Part shown: piece after piece, positions 1 to 39,171 of the stretch
Numbering within the stretch: the first letter of the stretch is position 1
Layout: the number at the start of each line of letters is the position of its first letter
Assembly: GCA_046758745.1 (NCBI GenBank)
Contig: JBHIAV010000023.1
Coordinates: 1-43,818 of the forward strand
Length of the DNA: 43,818 nt
Reading direction: 5' to 3'
Source of the DNA: Gemmatimonadota bacterium
GTDB taxonomy: Bacteria > Gemmatimonadota > Gemmatimonadetes > Palauibacterales > Palauibacteraceae
Position numbers and translations under genes: made by a program
Notes under the pieces: model-generated
Told to the model about the DNA's origin: nothing
The model's input: the letters and a program-made list of their open reading frames with translations, nothing else
Database searches by the model: none

Positions 1-248
<248 letters not shown>

Positions 249-305
249 GGGAGTTTTCCCGAGTCAACCCGCACGTCACTCACGCTTTCTTCTCAGGTCG
301 TGTGT

Positions 306-340
306 AGCCCCACGGGAGACCCCGTGGGGCTTCCCGTTTG
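306..340 (+). terminator. Terminator-like hairpin downstream of the 16S gene
   Basis: Perfect 11-bp stem AGCCCCACGGG-agac-CCCGTGGGGCT (306-331) followed by TCCCGTTTG (weak U-tract), about 60 nt after the 16S end. Confidence 0.7.
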
Positions 341-356
341 TGCCCGCCCGAGGAGC

Positions 357-598
357 ATGACCGATCCTCCGGCCAACACCGAACCGGCGCGCGGCTTTCG
401 GTCCGGCTACCGTGCCGTCGCGGACCGCCTAACGTCGGCAAGTCGACCCTCGCCAGCACACCCGGATCGGCGAGAGGTTGGGCATCGTCGCCCCGGAGGC
501 CCACACCGCGCGGCAGCGACTTCCCGTTGAAGGTGCTTCCAAGCTGGCGAAGGCGCAGGGGGTTACTTAAGCTGCTTCGTTACAGGCTCGACACGTGA
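357..598 (+). pseudogene. era: era (GTPase Era) relic: frameshifted, with a large internal deletion
   Basis: Pieces in three frames read GFRSGY (393-410), GPPNVGKSTL (422-451, G1 P-loop) and IGERLGIVAPEAHTARQR (466-519, G2 region; Era consensus approx. G.K.SIVSPKAQTTR). They are joined directly to LKVLPSWRRRRGLLKLLRY...stop (527-598), which resembles the Era C-terminus (WVKV..NWR....L..LGY). Confidence 0.85.
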
Positions 599-611
599 CG
601 GAGGGTAGAGT

Positions 612-779
612 ATGGGCTTGGATCCGGTTCTGCTCGAGATTCTGGTGTGCCCCCAGTGCAAAGGGGAGCTGGAGTACCGCGAGGAGGAGGAGGCCCTCCT
701 GTGCCACGCATGTCGCCTCCGCTACCGAATCGAGGACGATGTCCCGATCATGCTGATTGATGAGGCTACGCCCTTCTGA
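612..779 (+). CDS. Trm112-like (YcaR/UPF0434) protein, 55 aa
   Basis: Read directly because it is below the ORF-track cutoff: MGLDPVLLEILVCPQCKGELEYREEEEALLCHACRLRYRIEDDVPIMLIDEATPF. Shows the LLEILVCP.CKG.L ... Y.I.D.IPIML..EA signature; GGAGGG RBS upstream. Confidence 0.93.
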   Translation: MGLDPVLLEILVCPQCKGELEYREEEEALLCHACRLRYRIEDDVPIMLIDEATPF

Positions 780-1848
780 GATCCCGCCGACGCGCGCCTC
801 GGCGTCGCTCCCGCCGCTGCGCTCACGGTCGAGGCCGCACATCCCGTTACCCACCCGGAGGCGGGCTCTCGCCGGCCTTCTCTGCCTGCTCGCGTCGCGG
901 GCGGAGGCGCAGGAGCCGACGGGCGAGTCGCTCCGCTCCGAGTCCTCTACCGTCGAGTCGGCCACCTTCCTGGTGGCGCCGATCGGGGCGCGCGCCGTGG
1001 GCCTCGGCGGCGCCGTGGCGGCCTCGCGGGGAGTCGCCGAGGCGATCCTGTGGAACCCGGCGGCCGCAGCCGCGCTGGAGGAGACCGAGCTTTACTACGT
1101 ACACTCCAACGACTTCGCGACGGAGAGCGACGTGTTCGGGGCCGTGTGGCGGTCGAGGGTGGGGCAGTTGGGCTTCGCCTATTACCTCTTCGACCTGGGA
1201 TCGATCGAGACGACGAGTGGAGGCGGCCAGCGGACGGGTGACCTGGAGCTGAAGAACGAGGCGTTCATCTTCTCCCTCGGACTTCCCGTTCGCTCGGGTG
1301 TCGAGGCGGGCTTCAGTTATAAGCTCGTGCGCTTCTCCTCCGATTGCAGCGGGGCGTGCGGGGAGTTCGACTTCGGCGCGACCGGGCACGCCTTCGACGC
1401 CGGCCTGATCTTGTCGGGCCCGCGCCATGCCCTGGGCGTCGTGTTGCGCAACGCGGGATCCGGCCTGTCGCTCGGCGGGGATGCCCCATCGGACCCTCTG
1501 CCTACCCGCCTCCGCCTCGGCGTCTCTCTTGAGCTGCTGGGCGAGCGAACGCCGGCCGGAGGCGCGCAAGGGGAGCTTCCCCTTCGTGTCTCCGTGAGCG
1601 CTGACCTCGAGGAGCCGCTCACCGAGTTCGATGACCTGGACTTCTTCCTTGGAGGCGAGGTCGGCCTCCGGGAGATCCTGTTCGCCCGGGTCGGCCACGC
1701 GTGGTCCGGAGACGGACGGACGGGTCCCAGCCTCGGGGTTGGGCTGCAGCTCGAGCGCCTCCGCATCGACTTCGGAAGAAGCTTCGACGACTTCTCCGAG
1801 TTCGACGGGGACGAGCCCTTCCAGCTCTCCCTCGGCCTGCGCCTGTAG
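760..1848 (+). CDS. PorV/PorQ (UPF0164)-family outer-membrane beta-barrel protein
   Basis: Signal-peptide-like RRRALAGLLCLLASRAEA, family motif FLVAPIGARAVGLGGA...ILWNPA, alternating beta strands and C-terminal FQLSLGLRL. Start codon uncertain. Confidence 0.75.
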   Translation: MRLRPSEIPPTRASASLPPLRSRSRPHIPLPTRRRALAGLLCLLASRAEAQEPTGESLRSESSTVESATFLVAPIGARAVGLGGAVAASRGVAEAILWNPAAAAALEETELYYVHSNDFATESDVFGAVWRSRVGQLGFAYYLFDLGSIETTSGGGQRTGDLELKNEAFIFSLGLPVRSGVEAGFSYKLVRFSSDCSGACGEFDFGATGHAFDAGLILSGPRHALGVVLRNAGSGLSLGGDAPSDPLPTRLRLGVSLELLGERTPAGGAQGELPLRVSVSADLEEPLTEFDDLDFFLGGEVGLREILFARVGHAWSGDGRTGPSLGVGLQLERLRIDFGRSFDDFSEFDGDEPFQLSLGLRL

Positions 1849-1860
1849 GCCGCTGCGCGC

Positions 1861-4059
1861 ATGCCGCGCGTAGGCGAACGGGAGGTCCTGCGATACCTGC
1901 AGGGCGAGGCATCCCGGCCGCTCAAGGCTGTCGAGCTTGCCCGCCTCCTGGACGTGCCGCGCGCCGAGTATCGCGAGTTCCACGGTCTGCTTCGCCGCAT
2001 GTCGCGCGCCGGCCTCATCTACCGGCAGCGCAAGGGCCGGTACGCCATCCCGCGCAACCTCAATCTGACCATCGGGCGCCTGCAGGTGACCCGTTCCGGA
2101 GACGGCTTCGTGGTACCGGACCCGAAGAGGGAGGGGGAGGACGTGTTCGTTCCTGCCCGATCCCTGGGCACCGCTGTCGATGGAGACACGGTGGTGGCGC
2201 GGGTCGAGCGTCGCCGGAGAGGCCGAAGCCCCGAGGGGCGGGTGATCCGCGTCCTGGAGCGGGCGTGGAGCCGAGTCGTCGGCATCTACCATGCTCGCGA
2301 TCGCTTCGGCTACGTGGTGCCGACCGAGCCTTCCCTGGGAGTGGAGATCTTCGTACCCGCCGGGCTCGAACAGGAGGCGGAAGACGGCTCGGTGGTGGTG
2401 GTGGAGATCACCGGCTGGGGGGAGTCCGAGCCGGCCCCGGTCGGTCGGGTGGAGCGACGGCTCGGGCGCCCGGGCGATCCCGGCGTCGATGTTCTCGGCA
2501 TCGTGTATGGGCACCGGCTTCCGAGCGAATTCCCCGGCGAAGTGCTTCGCGAGGCCGAACGGATCGCCCGCCGCGGGATCAGAGAGGAAGACCTGGAGAA
2601 CCGCGAGGATCTGCGGGACGAGCTGGCATGGACCATCGATCCGGCCGACGCGAAGGACCACGACGACGCCGTGTCGATCCGCGATCTGGGGGACGGACGG
2701 TGGTGCGTGGGCGTCCACATCGCGGATGTCTCCTACTACGTCAAGCCGGGGAGTCGCGTGGACGAGGAGGCGCTCGAACGGGGGACCAGCGTGTATCTGG
2801 TGGACCGGGCGATTCCGATGCTTCCGCCGCCGCTCTCGAGCGGCCTCTGCTCCCTCCTCCCGGGCGAGGATCGCCTCACCGTCTCCGTCCTCTTCACGAT
2901 CGACGAAGCGGGCGATGTGCTCGAGGAGAGGCTGACGCGGAGCGTGATCCGAAGCCGTCGCCGCCTTTCGTACGACGAGGCGCAGGAGCTGCTTGACCGG
3001 ACGCCTGCGGCGCACGGAGCCGTTCCGGAGGGCGCCGTCGCCACACGCGGCGGAGCCGTGGCGGACGATGGCGCCGTGGCGGACGATGGAGTTCTCTCGG
3101 AGGCGCTACGAACGCTTCTTGGGGCGAGCCGCCGGGTCCGCCGCCGCAGAACGGAGCGGGGGAGCCTCGACTTCGACCTTCCCGAAGCCAGAGTGATCCT
3201 GAACCGTGCGGGAGAGCCGACCGACATACAGCGCATACTGCGGCTGGAGTCCCACCTCCTGATCGAAGATCTGATGATCCTCGCCAACGAAGCCGTGGCC
3301 CGGCTCGCCGTGCGCGAGGGATTCCCCCTCATCTACCGGATCCACGAGGAGCCGTCGGAGGAGAAGATGGAGAGCCTGCGGGCGCTCGCCGTCACCTTCG
3401 GCTTCCACCTCGCCCGCCGTAAGGTCAGGCCGGCCGACCTGGCCAGGTTGCTCCGTTCGATGCGAGGAACTCCGCAGGAGCAGCTCATCTCGACCGTCAC
3501 GCTGCGCAGCATGAAGCAGGCGCGGTATTCGATCCGCAACGTTGGCCACTTCGGTCTGGCCTCGCCCGCGTACGCGCATTTCACCTCGCCGATCCGCCGC
3601 TACCCGGACCTCGTCGTGCACCGCCAGATCGTCCGATGGATGCTGGGGGCAGGCCGTGTCGGAGACCGCTTCGTCCAGGAGCTCGCGGAGGTGGCGGACC
3701 ACTGCTCGGAGCGCGAGCGGCGGGCGACGGCAGCCGAACGGGATTCGATCGAGCTCAAGAAGATCCAGTTCCTGGAGCACCATGTCGGCAATGAGTTCCG
3801 CGGTACGGTAAGCGGCGCCCAGGCGTTCGGCTTCTTCGTGCTGTTGGACGACTACCATGTGGAGGGACTCGTCCACGTGAGCACGCTGGAAGACGATTAC
3901 TACGAGCACGTGGAGGAACGACACGTCCTCGTGGGTCGGCGGCAGCGGCGGCGAATCCGCCTCGGTGATCCGGTGCGCGTGCGTGTGACGCGGGTGGACA
4001 GGGAGAAGCGGCAGGTCGATCTTGAGCTGATCGCGCGGGGACGACGTACGGACGGGTGA
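1861..4059 (+). CDS. rnr: Ribonuclease R
   Basis: N-terminal HTH and cold-shock domains, RNB catalytic motif TIDPADAKDHDDAVS, HFTSPIRRYPDL, C-terminal S1 domain. Confidence 0.96.
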   Translation: MPRVGEREVLRYLQGEASRPLKAVELARLLDVPRAEYREFHGLLRRMSRAGLIYRQRKGRYAIPRNLNLTIGRLQVTRSGDGFVVPDPKREGEDVFVPARSLGTAVDGDTVVARVERRRRGRSPEGRVIRVLERAWSRVVGIYHARDRFGYVVPTEPSLGVEIFVPAGLEQEAEDGSVVVVEITGWGESEPAPVGRVERRLGRPGDPGVDVLGIVYGHRLPSEFPGEVLREAERIARRGIREEDLENREDLRDELAWTIDPADAKDHDDAVSIRDLGDGRWCVGVHIADVSYYVKPGSRVDEEALERGTSVYLVDRAIPMLPPPLSSGLCSLLPGEDRLTVSVLFTIDEAGDVLEERLTRSVIRSRRRLSYDEAQELLDRTPAAHGAVPEGAVATRGGAVADDGAVADDGVLSEALRTLLGASRRVRRRRTERGSLDFDLPEARVILNRAGEPTDIQRILRLESHLLIEDLMILANEAVARLAVREGFPLIYRIHEEPSEEKMESLRALAVTFGFHLARRKVRPADLARLLRSMRGTPQEQLISTVTLRSMKQARYSIRNVGHFGLASPAYAHFTSPIRRYPDLVVHRQIVRWMLGAGRVGDRFVQELAEVADHCSERERRATAAERDSIELKKIQFLEHHVGNEFRGTVSGAQAFGFFVLLDDYHVEGLVHVSTLEDDYYEHVEERHVLVGRRQRRRIRLGDPVRVRVTRVDREKRQVDLELIARGRRTDG
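3016..3093 (+). repeat. In-frame short tandem repeat in rnr (GAV-containing units)
   Basis: GCCGTGGCGGACGATGG is identical at 3055-3071 and 3073-3089 (period 18); the region encodes GAVPEGAVATRGGAVADDGAVADDGV. Confidence 0.8.
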
Positions 4060-4130: not shown

Positions 4131-4179
4131 GCGCAGAGTGCACTTGGCCACATCCTCGGGCCGGTATAGAGGGGGTCGA

Positions 4180-5299
4180 ATGGGAGCGATCACCGAGCAC
4201 GCGATATGCCTCGCCGAGCAGCGGAGCCGGCTGGACGAGCTTCGGGGGTATCTTTGAGATCCCGTCGAAGCTGACGCGCCTGGAGGAGCTCGAGCGCCTC
4301 ATGGCGCGGCCCGGCTTCTGGGACCACCCGGAGGCCGCGCGGAGGACGATCGAGAGCGCCAATCGGCTCAAGGAGTGGACGGAGCCGTGGTCCCGGCTCT
4401 CGAAGATGGTCGACGACCTGCGAGAGCTGGTGGAGCTGGCGGGGGAGGAGGGAGAGGGAGATGAAGCCCTCCTCGCCGACCTGGAGCGGGAGATCGAGCA
4501 GCTCGAGCGAGAGCTCTCCGACCTCGAGCTCCGGAACATGCTCCGTGACCCCGAGGCCCGCCGGGATGCCCTCCTCACCATCCACCCGGGTGCGGGTGGT
4601 ACGGAGTCGCAGGACTGGGCTGAGATGCTCATGCGGATGTATACCCGCTGGGCGGAGCGCCGCGGCTACGAGGTGGAGATCCTCGACCTGCTTCCCGGGG
4701 AGGAGGCCGGCCTCAAGTCGGTGACCCTCGAGGTGCGGGGGGAGTACGCGTACGGCTACCTCCTCGCCGAACGCGGTGTCCATCGCCTGGTTCGCATCTC
4801 TCCGTTCGACGCTCAGGGCCGGCGCCACACCTCTTTCGCCTCCGTTTTCGTGTACCCCGTCGTGGACGATGACATCGAGATCGAGATCGACGAGTCGGAT
4901 CTACGGATCGATACCTTCCGCGCTTCAGGAGCGGGCGGGCAGCACGTCAACAAGACGAGCTCGGCCGTGCGTATCACGCACACGCCGACGGGAATCGTGG
5001 TGTCGTGCCAGCAGGAGCGGAGCCAGCACAAGAACAAGGCCAAGGCGATGAAGGTGCTCCAGGCCGCGCTCTTCCAGCGCGCTCTGGAAGAGAAGAAGGC
5101 CGAGCGCCGCCAGCTCGAGGATACCAAGACCGAGATCGCGTGGGGGAACCAGATCCGCTCCTACGTCCTTCAGCCGTACACCATGGTCAAGGACCACCGC
5201 ACGTCGCTCGAGATCGGGAATGCCCAGGCCGTGCTGGACGGGCAGATCGACGAGTTCATCGAGGCCTATCTGAGGCAGGACGGAGCGACGGCGGCGTGA
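4180..5299 (+). CDS. prfB: Peptide chain release factor 2, expressed through a programmed +1 frameshift (about 372 aa)
   Basis: ATG 4180 gives MGAITEHAICLAEQRSRLDELRGYL, then CTT TGA at 4252-4257. The +1 frame continues EIPSKL... and contains the SPF (RISPFD) and GGQ (SGAGGQHVN) motifs. Confidence 0.97.
4244..4258 (+). other. RF2 autoregulatory +1 frameshift cassette
   Basis: GGGGG TAT CTT TGA G: internal SD-like run, 3-nt spacer, slippery CTT-T and in-frame UGA. Confidence 0.93.
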
Positions 5300-6927: not shown

Positions 6928-7024
6928 GCCGCGGCGCGGCGAGGGAGGTGGCCGTCCGGATCCCGCGCTCCCGGCGTCGGCCGGCGCGGCTCCCCCCGTG
7001 GCCTGGCACCGGGCGAACAGAAGG

Positions 7025-9082
7025 ATGACCGGCGCGGAGAGAGATAGCCGCCGACGGCTCGAGCGGTTCCTGGCCCACCGCTACCTATCGAGCCGACGCG
7101 GGCGAGGTTTCCTCTCCCTGATCACCCTCATCGCCGTCGGGGGCGTCACGGTCGGCGTGATGGCGCTCATCGTGGTCATCGGCGTGATGAGCGGGCTGCA
7201 GCGCGACCTGAGGGAGAAGATTCTCGGTGCCGAAGCGCATGGCATGGTGCTCGAGATCGGGCAGGATGTCCGCATGGAGAGCTGGGAGTCGGTACTGGGG
7301 CGCGTGCGCGAGGACCCCGAGGTGACAGCCGCCGGGCCCTTCATCTATACGGAGGTGGGGCTCAACGTCCCGGGCGAGAACTACGCCGAGGGCGCCGTCC
7401 TGCGCGGCATCCAGAACGACCCCGAGGCGCTCCTCACCACCCGCGTCGACGAGCTGATCGTCTCCGGACGAATGCCCTTCGGGCCGACCGAATCGGGAAA
7501 GCCCGGGATCCTCCTCGGCGCGGAGCTCGCCCGCCGGCTGGGTGTCTTTCCGGGACGCGAGCTGGCCGTCGTGGCGTTCCAGGGGGCCGAGCTCACAGCT
7601 ACGGGCATCCAGCCCCAGATGCGCCTCTTCGAGGTGACGGGGACCTTCGAGACCGGGCTGTACAACTACGATACCAAGTTCTCCTACGTGGAGCTGGAGG
7701 CGGCTCAGCGCCTCCTGCGCCTTGGATCGGCGGTGACGGGCGTTGAGTTCAACGTCACGGATCCGTGGCAGGCCCGCCTGGTGGGGGACCGGGTGGAGGA
7801 GGCCCTCGGGTTCCCGTACCGGGTGGACGACTGGCAGAGCCAGAACCGCAACCTCTTCTCGGCTCTCAAGCTCGAGAAGCTGGCCATGGGAGTGATCCTA
7901 CTCCTCATCGTTCTCGTCGCGTCCTTCAACATCATCTCCACCCTGATCATGGTCGTGACCGAAAAGGTTCACGAGATCGGGATCCTGCGGTCGATGGGGC
8001 TCACCGCGGGCGGCGTGATGCGGGTGTTCATGTACCAGGGGACGATCGTCGGGCTGGTCGGAACGGTGGCCGGGGTTACGCTGGGGGGCACGCTCGCCTG
8101 GCTTCTGGCCCGGTACGAGTTCATCACCCTCCCGGGCGACGTCTACTTCATCGACCGCCTACCGGTGGACGTGAACCCGGTGGACATGGCGCTCATCATC
8201 GTGGCCTCTCTCGCCATCTCGTTCCTGGCCACGATCTACCCGTCCCGACGCGCGGCCGAGCTCACCCCGGTGGAGGCGATCCGAGGGATCTACGATCCGG
8301 CGCGGGTTCCGTGGTGGCGTGCCCGCCGCAGGCACGGATCGAGATCTGCCGCGTCCGCCTCGCGGAGAGTCGCGTCGACCGAGCCGGCCGGGGGGGTGGC
8401 CCGGGTGGAGGGATTGCACCGGACGTTCGTGGACGCTGACGGACACGATATCCGCGTGCTCCGCGGCGTGGAGCTGGTGATCGACGCCGGGGAGACGATC
8501 GCCGTCGTGGGGCCGAGCGGGGCGGGAAAGTCCACGCTGCTGCACCTGCTCGGCGGACTCGATCGCCCGACCGACGGGGCCGTGATTCTGGGCGACCGGC
8601 CGCTCCACGAGCTGGACGACACCGAGCTGGCTCGCCTGCGCAATCGGTTCGTGGGTTTCGTCTTCCAGTTCCACCACCTCCTTCGCGACTTCACGGCCCT
8701 GGAGAACGTGATGATCCCCCAGATCATCGCGGGATTCGATGAGTCGACCGCCCGCCGACGGGCGCTCGATCTCCTCGACCAGGTCGGGCTGGTCGACCGG
8801 GCCGGCCACCGTCCCGGGAAGCTCTCCGGCGGCGAGCAGCAGCGGGTCGCGGTGGCGCGCGCGCTGGCCAACGAACCGGCGCTCTTGCTGGCGGATGAGC
8901 CGTCGGGTAACCTGGACTTGGAGACGAGCGAGCGCCTGCACCACCTGCTCTTCGAGCTGGTCGCGGAGCACGGGAGCGCGCTCGTAGTGGTCACGCACAA
9001 CAGCTCGCTGGCGGCGAGAACGGGCCGAATCTTGCAGTTGCGGGGGGGCGTACTCGAACCGGCAGTTGCGGAGCCGGTGTGA
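7025..9082 (+). CDS. Fused lipoprotein-releasing system protein: LolC/E-type permease plus LolD-type ATPase
   Basis: N-terminal part: RYL...GFLSLITLIAVGGV.VGVMALIVVIGVMSG ... LKLEKLAM ... LATIYPSRRAAELTPVEAIR (LolC/E). After a linker, in the same frame: GPSGAGKS, GFVFQFHHLL, LSGGEQQRVA, LLADEPSGNLD, VVTH (LolD). AGAAGG RBS before ATG 7025. Confidence 0.9.
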   Translation: MTGAERDSRRRLERFLAHRYLSSRRGRGFLSLITLIAVGGVTVGVMALIVVIGVMSGLQRDLREKILGAEAHGMVLEIGQDVRMESWESVLGRVREDPEVTAAGPFIYTEVGLNVPGENYAEGAVLRGIQNDPEALLTTRVDELIVSGRMPFGPTESGKPGILLGAELARRLGVFPGRELAVVAFQGAELTATGIQPQMRLFEVTGTFETGLYNYDTKFSYVELEAAQRLLRLGSAVTGVEFNVTDPWQARLVGDRVEEALGFPYRVDDWQSQNRNLFSALKLEKLAMGVILLLIVLVASFNIISTLIMVVTEKVHEIGILRSMGLTAGGVMRVFMYQGTIVGLVGTVAGVTLGGTLAWLLARYEFITLPGDVYFIDRLPVDVNPVDMALIIVASLAISFLATIYPSRRAAELTPVEAIRGIYDPARVPWWRARRRHGSRSAASASRRVASTEPAGGVARVEGLHRTFVDADGHDIRVLRGVELVIDAGETIAVVGPSGAGKSTLLHLLGGLDRPTDGAVILGDRPLHELDDTELARLRNRFVGFVFQFHHLLRDFTALENVMIPQIIAGFDESTARRRALDLLDQVGLVDRAGHRPGKLSGGEQQRVAVARALANEPALLLADEPSGNLDLETSERLHHLLFELVAEHGSALVVVTHNSSLAARTGRILQLRGGVLEPAVAEPV

Positions 9083-34886: not shown

Positions 34887-36164
34887 ATGATTCGGGTCGC
34901 CGAAGTGCGCCGCCGTTCCATCGGCGCCGAGCTTGGTCTCGTTCCCGGCTCGCTCCTCCTCCGGATCAACGGGCAGGAGATCCGGGATGCGCTCGATCTT
35001 CTCTTCCTCTCGGCCGAGGAGCGCCTCGAGCTCGAGGCGCAGAGCCCGGGCGGCGAGAGCTACGTCTACGAGATCGAGAAGGCGTACGACGAGCCGCTGG
35101 GAATCGTCCCGGAGCCGGACAAGGTGCGGCGGTGCACGAACGCGTGCGCCTTCTGCTTCGTGAAGGGCAATCCGAAGACCGGGAAGCTCCGCTCGACCCT
35201 CTACATCAAGGACGATGACTACCGGCTCTCGTTCATGTACGGCCACTACGTGACCCTCACCAATCTTCGCCAGACGGATTGGCAGAGGATCTTCGATCAG
35301 CGCCTTTCGCCGCTGTACGTGAGCGTTCACTCCACGGAGCCCGACGTTCGTCGTGCCATGCTCAAGAACCCCCGCGCGGCGGAGATCAACGAGCACCTCG
35401 ACCGGCTCGCCGAGGGCGGCATCCGCATCCACGCACAGGTGGTGCTGTGCCCCGAGCTGAATGACGGTGACCATCTTGGGCGTACAATCGACGATCTGTA
35501 CGCCCGCGGCGATTCGGTTCCCTCGCTCTCGGTCGTGCCGGTCGGCCTCACCAGCTACAACCAGGACCGAGGAATCCGCCCGCTCACCCGCGCGGAGAGC
35601 CGGCGGGCGCTGGAGCAGGTAGACGCCGCCCGGAGACGGGCGATCTCCGAGCGTGGCCGCGGGTGGTGCTACGCCGCGGACGAGCTCTTTCTGCAGGCGG
35701 GCGGAGAGCTTCCGGGATCGGAGTACTTCGACGACCGCGAGCTGGTGGGGAACGGCGTGGGTGCCATGTCCGAGCTGGCCGGCCGAGTCCGCCGTGACCT
35801 GGGGACACTTCCGCCGCTGCTCGGGAGGCGGATCGTCCTCATCACCGGGACGTCGATGGGGCCCTTTCTGCGCTCTCTTGCCCGAGAGATCGCCGAGGCG
35901 TGCGGCGCGCTCATCGAGACGCTTCCCGTGATCAACACCCTGTATGGCCCCCTCGTCACCACGGCCGGTCTGCTGCCCGGGCGGGACCACCTGCAGGCGC
36001 TCGCGCCGTACCGGGACTTCGACAGGGCCCTGTTCAGCCGCACCGCGCTGAACGACCAGGAGTTCTTTCTCGACGACGTGACGCTGGAACAGCTCCGGGA
36101 TGCCTACCCCTCGCTCGACATATGTCCGTCCGACCACATCACCGACGCGCTGATCACGCGGTAG
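34887..36164 (+). CDS. PDZ + DUF512 radical-SAM-like Fe-S protein
   Basis: N-terminal PDZ-like segment, CTNACAFCFV (CxxxCxxC), LYIKDDDYRLSF..G.YVTLTN, LSPLYVSVH, QVVLCPELNDG, VVPVGLT, YAADE. Confidence 0.9.
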   Translation: MIRVAEVRRRSIGAELGLVPGSLLLRINGQEIRDALDLLFLSAEERLELEAQSPGGESYVYEIEKAYDEPLGIVPEPDKVRRCTNACAFCFVKGNPKTGKLRSTLYIKDDDYRLSFMYGHYVTLTNLRQTDWQRIFDQRLSPLYVSVHSTEPDVRRAMLKNPRAAEINEHLDRLAEGGIRIHAQVVLCPELNDGDHLGRTIDDLYARGDSVPSLSVVPVGLTSYNQDRGIRPLTRAESRRALEQVDAARRRAISERGRGWCYAADELFLQAGGELPGSEYFDDRELVGNGVGAMSELAGRVRRDLGTLPPLLGRRIVLITGTSMGPFLRSLAREIAEACGALIETLPVINTLYGPLVTTAGLLPGRDHLQALAPYRDFDRALFSRTALNDQEFFLDDVTLEQLRDAYPSLDICPSDHITDALITR

Positions 36165-37489
36165 CGCTTCCCACGGTCGCGATCGTCGGGCGGCCGAATG
36201 TCGGCAAGTCGACGCTCTTCAACCGGATCGTGGGTCGCCGCATCGCCATCGTCGCGGAGGAGGCGGGCGTCACGCGCGACCGGAAGTTCGCCACGGCCGA
36301 ATGGGCGGGTCGTTCCTTCCTGCTCGCCGACACGGGCGGCCTGATCGAGGAGCCAGACCGACCGCTCGACAGGGAAGTCCGCCGGCAGGTGCTCGCCGCG
36401 ATCGACCACGCGGACCTGATCCTCTTCGTGGTGGACGGGCCGAGCGGCGTCCACCCGCTCGACGAGCACCTCGCGGAGCTTCTCCGCCGCACCCGGCGGC
36501 CCGTGCTGCTGGCCGTGAACAAGCTGGACGATCCGGCGAGCGCTTCGGAGCACCACGAGTTCCACCGCTTCGGGCTGGGCGATCCGCTTCCGGTTTCCGC
36601 CCTGAGCGGCAAAGGGAGCGGCGATCTCCTCGACCGGCTCGTCGAACTCCTCCCGCAGACCTCGCCGGACGGCGCCGCTCCGGTCTCCCTTCGACTCGCG
36701 GTGATCGGCAAGCCCAACGTGGGCAAGTCGACCTTCGTGAACCGTCTGCTCGGGGAGGACCGGGTCATCGTGAGCGAGGAGCCGGGGACGACCCGCGACT
36801 CGATCGACACCTATCTGGAGTTCGACGGCGAGCGCCTCTGCCTGATCGATACGGCGGGCTTGCGCCGCCGCTCGCGCGTGACGGACGACCTTGAGTTCTA
36901 CGGCCGGCTCCGCGCCGCCGCCGCCATCCGGCGAGCGGACGTGTGTCTCCTCATCACGGACAGCCGTGCCGGCATCACCAACCAGGACTTTCGAATCGGC
37001 GAAGAGGCGTGGCAGGCGGGGTGCGGGCTCGTGTTCGTGGCCAACAAGTGGGATCTCATCGAGGAGCGTGGCCCCCGGGTGGTGGCCGGCTTCGAGCGGG
37101 ATCTCCGTGAGCGAGCCCCGTTCCTTCGCTGGGTCCCGATCGTCACCACGTCGGCACTGTCGGGAAAACGGGTGGGGAAGGTTCTGGAGATCGCGCGGCG
37201 CGTGCAGGCGGAGCGAGAACGCCGCATTCGAACCGCCGAGGTGAACCGGGTGCTCGGTGATCTGATCGCACGCAAGCAGCCGCCTCAGGGGGGGCGGGGA
37301 GATGTGAAGATCCTGTACGGGAGCCAGGTGGCGACGGCGCCGCCTCGCTTCGTCCTGTGGGCCAACAGGCCGGAGGACATCGCCCGGTCCTACCTGCGCT
37401 ACCTGCACAACGGCTTCCGGCAGGCATGGGGCTTTGACGGAACGCCGCTCCGTCTCAAGGTCCGCCGGCGTGACGAGGAGAGAGGATGA
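36122..37489 (+). CDS. der: Ribosome biogenesis GTPase Der (EngA)
   Basis: Two G domains (GRPNVGKS/GVTRD/DTGG/NKLD and GKPNVGKS/GTTRD/DTAG/NKWD) plus a KH-like tail (GFDGTPLRL). Start uncertain: ATG 36122 is the nearest canonical codon. Confidence 0.96.
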   Translation: MSVRPHHRRADHAVALPTVAIVGRPNVGKSTLFNRIVGRRIAIVAEEAGVTRDRKFATAEWAGRSFLLADTGGLIEEPDRPLDREVRRQVLAAIDHADLILFVVDGPSGVHPLDEHLAELLRRTRRPVLLAVNKLDDPASASEHHEFHRFGLGDPLPVSALSGKGSGDLLDRLVELLPQTSPDGAAPVSLRLAVIGKPNVGKSTFVNRLLGEDRVIVSEEPGTTRDSIDTYLEFDGERLCLIDTAGLRRRSRVTDDLEFYGRLRAAAAIRRADVCLLITDSRAGITNQDFRIGEEAWQAGCGLVFVANKWDLIEERGPRVVAGFERDLRERAPFLRWVPIVTTSALSGKRVGKVLEIARRVQAERERRIRTAEVNRVLGDLIARKQPPQGGRGDVKILYGSQVATAPPRFVLWANRPEDIARSYLRYLHNGFRQAWGFDGTPLRLKVRRRDEERG

Positions 37490-39171
37490 AGGTCCTCCTG
37501 CTGGCCCTCACGGCGTATCTGCTCGGCTCGATCCCGACCAGCTACCTCGTCGGGCGGGTGCACGGGGTGGATCTGCGCACGCTGGGCAGCGGAAACCTCG
37601 GCGGCACGAACACGTACCGGGTGCTCGGCGCCCGGGCCGCCTCGGTCGTCGTCCTCGTCGACGTGGCGAAGGGCTTCTTCCCCGCGTGGGTCTTCGCGTC
37701 GTGGGACGGGAGCGGTCTCGCGTGGCTCGTTCTGCTGTACGGCGGCGCTGCGATTGCCGGACACGTGTGGCCGGCCTTCCTCCGCTTCCGGGGCGGGAAA
37801 GGCGTCGCCACCGCGGCGGGAGTGCTCCTCGCGCTCGCGCCCCTCGCCATGCTCATCGCCCTCCTCGTCTGGGTGGGACTCGTTCTGGTGACCCGCATCG
37901 TTTCGCTAGCCTCCCTGACGGCCGTCACCCTCGTCCCCCTACTGACGGCAGTGGCGGGAGCGCCGGCCGAGATCGTCGTCTTCTGCGGCGCGGCCGCGAT
38001 CTTCGTATGGTGGACGCACCGCTCGAACCTGCGCCGTCTGTGGCGGGGGGAGGAGCACCGGTTTGGCCGCCGAGGCGCCGCCGACCGGCCGCGGGAGGGC
38101 GCCGGGAGCTCGAAGCCGCGAACAGGAGCCGCGGCCTCCGAGCCGCGGCCAAGCGCAGGTCAGGCAACCCCCGTGGCGGTGCTGGGAGCCGGCAGCTGGG
38201 GCACCGCGCTCGCCGATCTCCTGGCCCGCAACGGTCACCCGGTGAGAGTGTGGGCCCATGACCCGCGGGTGGCCGAGGAGATGCGGCGAAGCGCGACGAA
38301 CTCGAAGCATCTTCCCGGGATCCGGATCGCCGACGGCGTGTGCGCTACACCCCGCCTCGAAGAGGCGGTGAGCGGGGCCGAGGTGCTCGTCTCGGCCACC
38401 CCGTCGCACGTCGTCCGTGAGGTGGTCGGCGAGGCCAGGCGGTGGCTCGACGAGCGCTCTCTCGTGGTCAGTGCCTCGAAGGGCCTCGAGATCGAGTCTG
38501 GCAAGTGCATGAGCGAAGTGCTGGCGGAGCTTCTGGGAGACAAACGGGGAAAGCGGATCGCCGTGCTCTCAGGGCCCAGCTTCGCCGTCGAGTTGTCCCG
38601 CCGTCTCCCGACGGCCGTGACGGTCGCCTCCCGGGAACCGGAGAGCGGCCTCCGGGTGCAGCGTCTCTTCCAAAACGAGCACTTTCGCCTGTACACGCAG
38701 TCGGACGTCATCGGAACCGAGCTCGGCGGTGCGCTCAAGAACGTGATCGCTATCGCCGCGGGGATCAGCGACGGCCTGCAGCTCGGCGACAACGCGCGGG
38801 CCGCCCTCATCACGCGAGGGCTCGCCGAGATCAGCCGTCTGGCGAGGAAGATGGGCGGGGAGGAGCCTACACTCGCCGGGCTCGCCGGGGCGGGGGATCT
38901 GATCCTCACCTGCACCGGCGATCTGAGTCGCAACCGCCGCGTGGGGTTGGCGATCGGCCGCGGCCGTCGCCTGGAGGAGGTGCTCGCGGAGACGACCTCC
39001 GTTGCCGAAGGTGTGCGAACGACCCGCGCGGCCCGCGACCTGGCCGCAGCGCACGGGGTGGAAATGCCGATCGTCGCCGCGGTATACTCTATCCTGTACG
39101 AGGACGTCGAACCTCGGCACGCGCTGGCAGAGCTCATGGCGAGAGAGCCCAAACCCGAACGATGGAGCTAG
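37486..39171 (+). CDS. plsY/gpsA: Fused PlsY acyltransferase / GpsA glycerol-3-phosphate dehydrogenase
   Basis: PlsY motifs YLLGSIP, GSGNLGGTN, DVAKG, FRGGKGVAT, HRSNLRRL; a linker; then GpsA motifs VLGAGSWGTALA, ASKGLE, LSGPSFA, GGALKNVIAIAAG, GDLILTC...SRN, all in one 561-aa ORF. Confidence 0.93.
   Translation: MKVLLLALTAYLLGSIPTSYLVGRVHGVDLRTLGSGNLGGTNTYRVLGARAASVVVLVDVAKGFFPAWVFASWDGSGLAWLVLLYGGAAIAGHVWPAFLRFRGGKGVATAAGVLLALAPLAMLIALLVWVGLVLVTRIVSLASLTAVTLVPLLTAVAGAPAEIVVFCGAAAIFVWWTHRSNLRRLWRGEEHRFGRRGAADRPREGAGSSKPRTGAAASEPRPSAGQATPVAVLGAGSWGTALADLLARNGHPVRVWAHDPRVAEEMRRSATNSKHLPGIRIADGVCATPRLEEAVSGAEVLVSATPSHVVREVVGEARRWLDERSLVVSASKGLEIESGKCMSEVLAELLGDKRGKRIAVLSGPSFAVELSRRLPTAVTVASREPESGLRVQRLFQNEHFRLYTQSDVIGTELGGALKNVIAIAAGISDGLQLGDNARAALITRGLAEISRLARKMGGEEPTLAGLAGAGDLILTCTGDLSRNRRVGLAIGRGRRLEEVLAETTSVAEGVRTTRAARDLAAAHGVEMPIVAAVYSILYEDVEPRHALAELMAREPKPERWS

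Follow-up and report, generated by a model that had tools for sequence, protein, structure and literature searches.

The DNA between the 3' end of a 16S rRNA gene and a Trm112-like gene in a Gemmatimonadota bacterium of the Palauibacteraceae contains four collinear pieces of the gene for the GTPase Era, spread over three reading frames (positions 357-598, that is 112-353 nt beyond the 16S end). The pieces correspond to the N-terminus, the P-loop, the switch-I region and the last ~23-24 residues of Era. Judged by comparison with the genes of relatives, this stretch is very probably a true era pseudogene at the ancestral era locus of the Gemmatimonadota. Positions refer to the window, the whole 43,818-nt stretch of DNA that was analysed (GCA_046758745.1, contig JBHIAV010000023.1; 68.8% G+C). 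A sequence-only reading of the window had proposed that era has collapsed here by a large internal deletion, directly behind the 16S rRNA gene and before the Trm112-like gene, and this proposal is supported because homology, collinearity and synteny agree on it. Era is among the most conserved ribosome-assembly factors of bacteria, and its C-terminal KH domain binds the 3' end of 16S rRNA.

The pieces and lesions of the relic are listed in Table 1 together with the neighbouring genes. In piece A, the GFRSGY motif lies at nt 393-410, and the piece aligns to the first ~39 columns of the alignment of the relatives' Era proteins. All four pieces lie in order on the 307-aa Era protein P0097, at residues 1-17, 25-32, 37-55 and 283-300. 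The P-loop of piece B is identical at 9 of 10 positions to that of the Era proteins of four related loci (L001, L002, L006 and L023) as aligned by tblastn. Piece C reads IGERLGIVAPEAHTARQR(L) at nt 466-522 in the three-frame translation and shares 13 of 19 residues with residues 36-54 of the L002 protein (tblastn). In the QTT motif of the relatives the Q and the second T are nearly invariant, and here they are replaced by H and A. Piece D has 15 of 20 residues identical to residues 283-302 of the L001 protein (tblastn, E 6e-5 over the whole window). The peptides quoted in the sequence-only reading were found where it had placed them, in the three-frame translation and in the list of open reading frames. 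Its statement that no single ORF shows the relic holds for the pieces that lie in other frames but not for the P-loop and the C-terminal piece, both of which are contained in an 86-aa ORF (338-598). This ORF and another of 76 aa are the longest in the relic, compared with 299-322 aa for era in relatives, and translation from ATG 357 runs into a stop codon at 528-530 after 57 codons.

Table 1. Features of the window around the era relic, with der and the hairpins of three relatives
Feature	Coordinates	Strand	Frame, evidence or remark
16S rRNA gene, 3' end	1..245	+	Rfam SSU_rRNA_bacteria 255.5 bits, model 1290-1533
GC-rich hairpin	306..331	+	11-bp stem, 4-nt loop, then TCCCGTTTG
Piece A: era start codon (ATG 357) and N-terminus to GFRSGY-RAV	357..419	+	frame of 357
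First small frame change, net -1, just 5' of P-loop	408..421	+	alignment to L001 1396-1526
Piece B: G1/P-loop GPPNVGKSTL	422..451	+	frame of 338
Second small frame change, net +2	452..465	+	14 nt against 12 in L001/L002
Piece C: switch-I (G2) region IGERLGIVAPEAHTARQRL	466..522	+	third frame
Deletion junction, frame shifts again	517..527	+	left side matches L001 to 1526, right side from 2202
Piece D: LKVLPSWRRRRGLLKLLRYRLDT and TGA stop (596-598)	527..598	+	frame of 338
Trm112-like gene	612..779	+	Pfam Trm112p 52.7 bits (cut-off 22)
PorV/PorQ-family outer-membrane protein gene	757..1848	+	NCBIfam NF033709 85.1 bits, just below cut-off 90
RNase R gene (rnr)	1861..4059	+	TIGR02063 740.7 bits; synteny anchor
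der	35900-37489		TIGR03594 510.5 bits, full profile; segment 35798-37486 in the Era profile search
Hairpin in L027	about 5030-5065		L027 coordinates
Hairpin in L003	about 265-310		L003 coordinates
Hairpin in L005	about 155-195		L005 coordinates

The extent of the deletion is given by nucleotide alignment to L001, the closest relative. Window 395-526 is identical to L001 1396-1526 at 101 of 135 columns and window 522-556 to L001 2202-2236 at 28 of 35 columns, and about 680 nt of L001 (677 in L002 coordinates), encoding Era residues ~56-282, are absent from the window. The missing stretch, whose length is not a multiple of three, encodes G3-G5 of the GTPase domain and the KH domain almost entirely. 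Of 308 codons, about 81 are left, so that about 74% of era is gone, close to the three quarters estimated before. The junction can be placed to within 517-527, where the window matches both flanks, and the breakpoint flanks of L001 and L002 have only a few bases in common; the stretch may have been lost in one step or in several. The two further frameshifts that had been postulated are likewise confirmed by the alignment to L001 and by the reading frames (Table 1). The surviving codons have also changed: the pieces cover in frame 25 columns whose conservation in 23 relatives is 95% or higher, and 18 of these are kept and seven changed, a count that excludes three further mismatches in the out-of-frame overlap 452-465. 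The changed columns include the two replacements in QTT and a G-to-R replacement in the C-terminal LG[FY] motif.

These lesions leave only G1 and a mutated G2 region of an Era-type GTPase domain (G1-G5). The best Era-related Pfam match in the relic ORFs is MMR_HSR1 with 11.4 bits against a cut-off of 21.9 (E 0.35), and positions ~56-280 of an Era profile are absent. The relic resumes at about residue 281-283 and gives no KH_2 match, and no single ORF of ~300 aa for a functional era was found in the window. A YnaL-like Pfam match in the relic ORFs (E 0.0061) falls under its own cut-off and was taken as noise. No Era-like protein can be made from window 357-598. The mismatches to L001 nevertheless fall at codon positions 1, 2 and 3 in 13, 7 and 21 of 49 cases each, a pattern that does not differ from that of trm112 (Fisher p 0.27) or rnr (p 0.75). 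Because the mismatches still look like those of a gene under selection, the decay appears to be recent relative to the split from L001.

Similarity searches identify the relic as a remnant of Era from several sides. An HMM built from the Era proteins of 23 relatives was run on all 893 stop-to-stop segments of the window. It ranks Der at the top, followed by segment 308-595 (E 6.4e-4), which covers profile positions 21-31 and 281-303, and by segment 433-567 (E 4.5e-3), which covers positions 35-53; the next match has an E-value of 0.17. The tblastn comparison with Era proteins that had been suggested as a check gives collinear N- and C-terminal matches: residues 22-51 and 283-302 of the L001 protein align to 422-511 and 527-586, and residues 22-31, 36-54 and 279-302 of the L002 protein to 422-451, 466-522 and 518-589. 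Consistently, a phmmer search of 177,635 PDB sequences with the 86-aa ORF returns three Aquifex Era chains at the top (E 0.05-0.06), each of them matched at the N-terminus and at the last 21 residues. The frame-3 piece alone finds nothing in the PDB, and none of the four relic ORFs has an NCBIfam match at E-values up to 10. Because each piece alone matches only weakly, an annotation pipeline would probably miss the relic. Compared with the GTPase Era family (MMR_HSR1 plus KH_2; Aquifex aeolicus 3IEV, 3R9W and 7C1O), the N-terminal 55 and C-terminal 24 residues of the relic are homologous and collinear. However, the relic lacks about 74% of the gene, is spread over three frames and has a mutated QTT motif, and it is not a functional member of the family.

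The ancestral state of the locus can be read from relatives. Species-representative genomes searched with the RNase R protein gave 80 loci, of which the 29 most similar belong to metagenome-assembled genomes of Gemmatimonadota type: 27 are assigned to Gemmatimonadota, Gemmatimonadetes, Gemmatimonadales or Longimicrobiales and two are named 'uncultured bacterium'. The window's own species is absent from this set, and L001 is closest to it, with 64% RNase R identity. When the relic pieces are searched singly, they are found in these relatives in the same order, on one strand and just upstream of trm112/porV/rnr. In 23 loci the P-loop match sits in an open frame that gives a protein of 299-322 aa. 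The profile of 23 proteins detects era at this place in all of the 29 loci but L012 and L045, which lack the upstream DNA. Of these 27 genes, 25 are whole, beginning at profile position 11 or lower and reaching 303 or higher, and two (L010 and L024) are truncated by the contig start. The expectation that relatives carry an intact era immediately upstream of the Trm112-like gene thus holds for the closest ones. By contrast, none of 51 loci of other phyla has era near rnr, and an extra profile match in L074, which belongs to another phylum, is a two-domain Der-type protein. The relatives' gene at this locus encodes a genuine Era protein: MMR_HSR1 (79.7 bits) and KH_2 (63.8 bits, residues 212-290) are both present in L001 1361-2287, and the database homologues of its product are named 'GTPase Era' by their sources.

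The downstream neighbourhood is shared in detail. The Trm112-like ORF of the window has 64-81% identity with the ORF directly 3' of era in L001-L006 and L011. The order trm112-porV-rnr lies 3' of era in L002, L003, L004, L006 and L011, as in the window, and 25 loci have a PorV homologue located between era/trm112 and rnr. In L001 and L005 the PorV-family gene is missing and trm112 is followed directly by rnr. The start of trm112 lies 3-23 nt past the era stop codon in L001, L002 and L005. In the window, the true start of the PorV/PorQ-family gene is probably later than 757.

Upstream, an rRNA gene on the strand of era has its 3' end within 4 kb of it in 15 of the 27 loci. This gene is a 16S gene in four (L001, L003, L005 and L027) and a 5S gene in 11 (L004, L006, L007, L014, L015, L017, L018, L019, L023, L025 and L068), and the window has the 16S-type arrangement. 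The flanks of the relic are therefore those of era in relatives, with a 16S end upstream as in these four loci and trm112-porV-rnr downstream. The gap between the rRNA gene and era is shorter than 250 nt in 10 loci (L003, L004, L006, L007, L015, L017, L019, L023, L027 and L068) and 1.3-3.7 kb long in L001, L005, L014, L018 and L025. Two close relatives have an extra gene ahead of era in the spacer that follows 16S, L001 for a GGDEF-domain protein (141-1364, + strand) and L005 for an M1-peptidase-like protein (240-1676, - strand); this spacer is variable. In the Gemmatimonadota, era typically comes first, or among the first genes, after an rRNA gene or operon.

The spacer of the window also contains a GC-rich hairpin. 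The fold of 296-345 has a free energy of -26.9 kcal/mol (z -3.69), and none of 200 shuffled sequences is equally stable. Strong GC-rich hairpins lie 60-100 nt beyond the 16S 3' end in the window and in L027, L003 and L005, and the hairpin at 306-331 is probably a 16S terminator or a processing stem between 16S and era. A consensus scan for promoters and terminators over 200-900 called no site, neither this hairpin nor a sigma-70-like promoter. Because no 23S, 5S or tRNA gene follows in the 43.5 kb of the window beyond 16S (Rfam; 0 tRNA genes by ARAGORN), the 16S gene of the window is unlinked from the 23S gene. A preprint (10.1101/705046) reports many unlinked rRNA genes and the absence of RNase III in Gemmatimonadota.

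The remainder of the window carries ordinary genes. Downstream of rnr follow prfB, lysS, a LolCE-LolD ORF, mcsA, mcsB and a gene for a ClpB-family AAA+ chaperone, and further along bamA, skp, lpx genes, bshC, murJ, uvrC, thrC, larC, der, plsY-gpsA, surE, pcm and apt. The prfB gene (4179-5299) has a classical programmed +1 frameshift site, CTTTGA at 4252 with a G-run before it, and its short first frame opens at an ATG near 4179. A LolCE-like permease and a LolD ATPase form a single 694-aa ORF (6998-9082), which is either a gene fusion or an indel; most relatives have two matches in different frames, and L010 also has one match across the joint. PlsY (residues 4-192) and GpsA (residues 229-559) share one 561-aa ORF (37486-39171), possibly a fusion.

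Three other explanations of the relic have to be weighed. GC-rich intergenic DNA might resemble Era motifs by chance, and the E-values of single pieces are indeed marginal. However, none of 1000 dinucleotide-preserving shuffles of 340-611 reaches the best score or the sum of the top two (26.9 for the real sequence against a shuffle maximum of 3.5), four pieces lie in the correct order at the syntenic place, and 101 of 135 nucleotide columns are identical to the L001 era, so that chance can be set aside with near certainty. It is also conceivable, though improbable, that era is whole at the real locus and that the window represents a mis-assembly or a rare haplotype with the deletion. All of the relic falls in the first 600 nt of the window, next to an rRNA gene, where related metagenome contigs often break, many loci beginning 120-800 nt upstream of era. 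The codon positions show little drift after inactivation, which is compatible with a very recent or strain-level event, and searches for homologues of the 86-aa ORF, among six candidates of 47-151 aa and 700 longer ones, gave no second sequence with the same deletion. On the other hand, three separate lesions and seven near-invariant replacements are unlike one false join. No 16-mer of 340-611 recurs in the window, which thus offers no repeat of 16 nt or more for a collapse, and the two breakpoints are little alike in L001 and L002. Other housekeeping genes in the window are single ORFs that cover their family profiles over the full length, and the prfB frameshift site, which is sensitive to a single base, is intact.

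The remnant might instead be kept as a working element, either as a short protein encoded by the 86-aa or 57-aa ORF or as an RNA leader or promoter for trm112-porV-rnr. Both ends of era have been preserved, era adjoins the downstream genes in relatives, and the divergence biased to third positions fits recent constraint. A maintained function is nevertheless very improbable. The 86-aa ORF has no homologue among the candidates of either size class, and a P-loop without G3-G5 and a KH domain cannot act as Era. As to an RNA role, an Rfam search of 230-700 at E-values up to 1 gave four sub-threshold matches, none of them credible (best E 0.023, 20.9 bits against a gathering score of 43), and the scan of 200-900 shows no sigma-70-like promoter. 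A leader role would moreover be a by-product of decay and is consistent with the pseudogene explanation. The relic retains the start codon and about 55 N-terminal codons, which include the P-loop and a degraded switch I, as well as the last ~24 codons with the stop. Because in relatives trm112 nearly abuts era and the short spacer after the rRNA gene is the sole non-coding DNA upstream, the signals on which the downstream genes rely probably lie inside era or ahead of it. The expression of trm112-porV-rnr would be spared by an internal deletion that leaves the two ends in place, and the surviving ends of era may persist as carriers of the signals for it.

Whether the organism has Era is a separate question. 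The window contains no other era in its 43.8 kb; Der is the sole further match and is matched through its GTPase domains only. A 2023 review (PMC10582724) states that Era is essential in several species and that its loss is costly where it is not, that era has been lost only in extremely reduced groups, among them Dependentiae, Chlamydia and most CPR, and that its distribution is patchy in Planctomycetota, Elusimicrobiota and Synergistota. On these grounds, a working era elsewhere in the genome is the likelier outcome within the pseudogene explanation and is favoured by a narrow measure. Of 7,752 Era homologues of L001, the 120 most like the L001 protein include none that is nearly identical to the relic pieces, as would be the sign of a recent duplicate; the best matches reach 14 of 19 and 16 of 20 residues, which is weak evidence because the ranking is by similarity to L001. 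A true loss of Era in a free-living, GC-rich, ordinary-looking member of the Gemmatimonadota, caught shortly after the event, is less likely. Most of the probability beyond these two outcomes is rated to an artefact or variant of the kind discussed above.

The window resembles the era-losing reduced bacteria in that era is inactivated at the only known era locus of the lineage. It differs from them in being gene-dense and GC-rich, with LPS, Bam, Lol and Der genes and no sign of genome reduction, and in that the relic is still visible. The same review lists rnc-era-recO, ybeY/ybeZ-era and neighbourhoods with rsmE, lepA, dnaG and others. As in these, the era locus of the window lies amid ribosome and RNA genes (rRNA, Trm112-like, RNase R, prfB and lysS), and the Gemmatimonadota arrangement rRNA end-era-trm112-porV-rnr is absent from the neighbours listed in section 6 and the Figure 1B legend of that review. 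A literature search found, as far as its results show, no paper on era in Gemmatimonadota or on era pseudogenes.

As a pseudogene, the relic is of a known kind, and it illustrates that 'intergenic' DNA beside rRNA genes can conceal short remnants of core genes spread over several frames. It would become notable only if the complete genome proves to be without era. Given a relic at the conserved era locus of a lineage that is not reduced, it would be ordinary to find era relocated or duplicated, whereas a natural Era-free bacterium would be notable for 30S assembly. If the organism is truly Era-free, the 3' end of an unlinked 16S rRNA would be matured and 30S subunits would be assembled without Era, and the organism would contradict, as a natural example, the view that a bacterium can do without Era only if its genome is extremely reduced.
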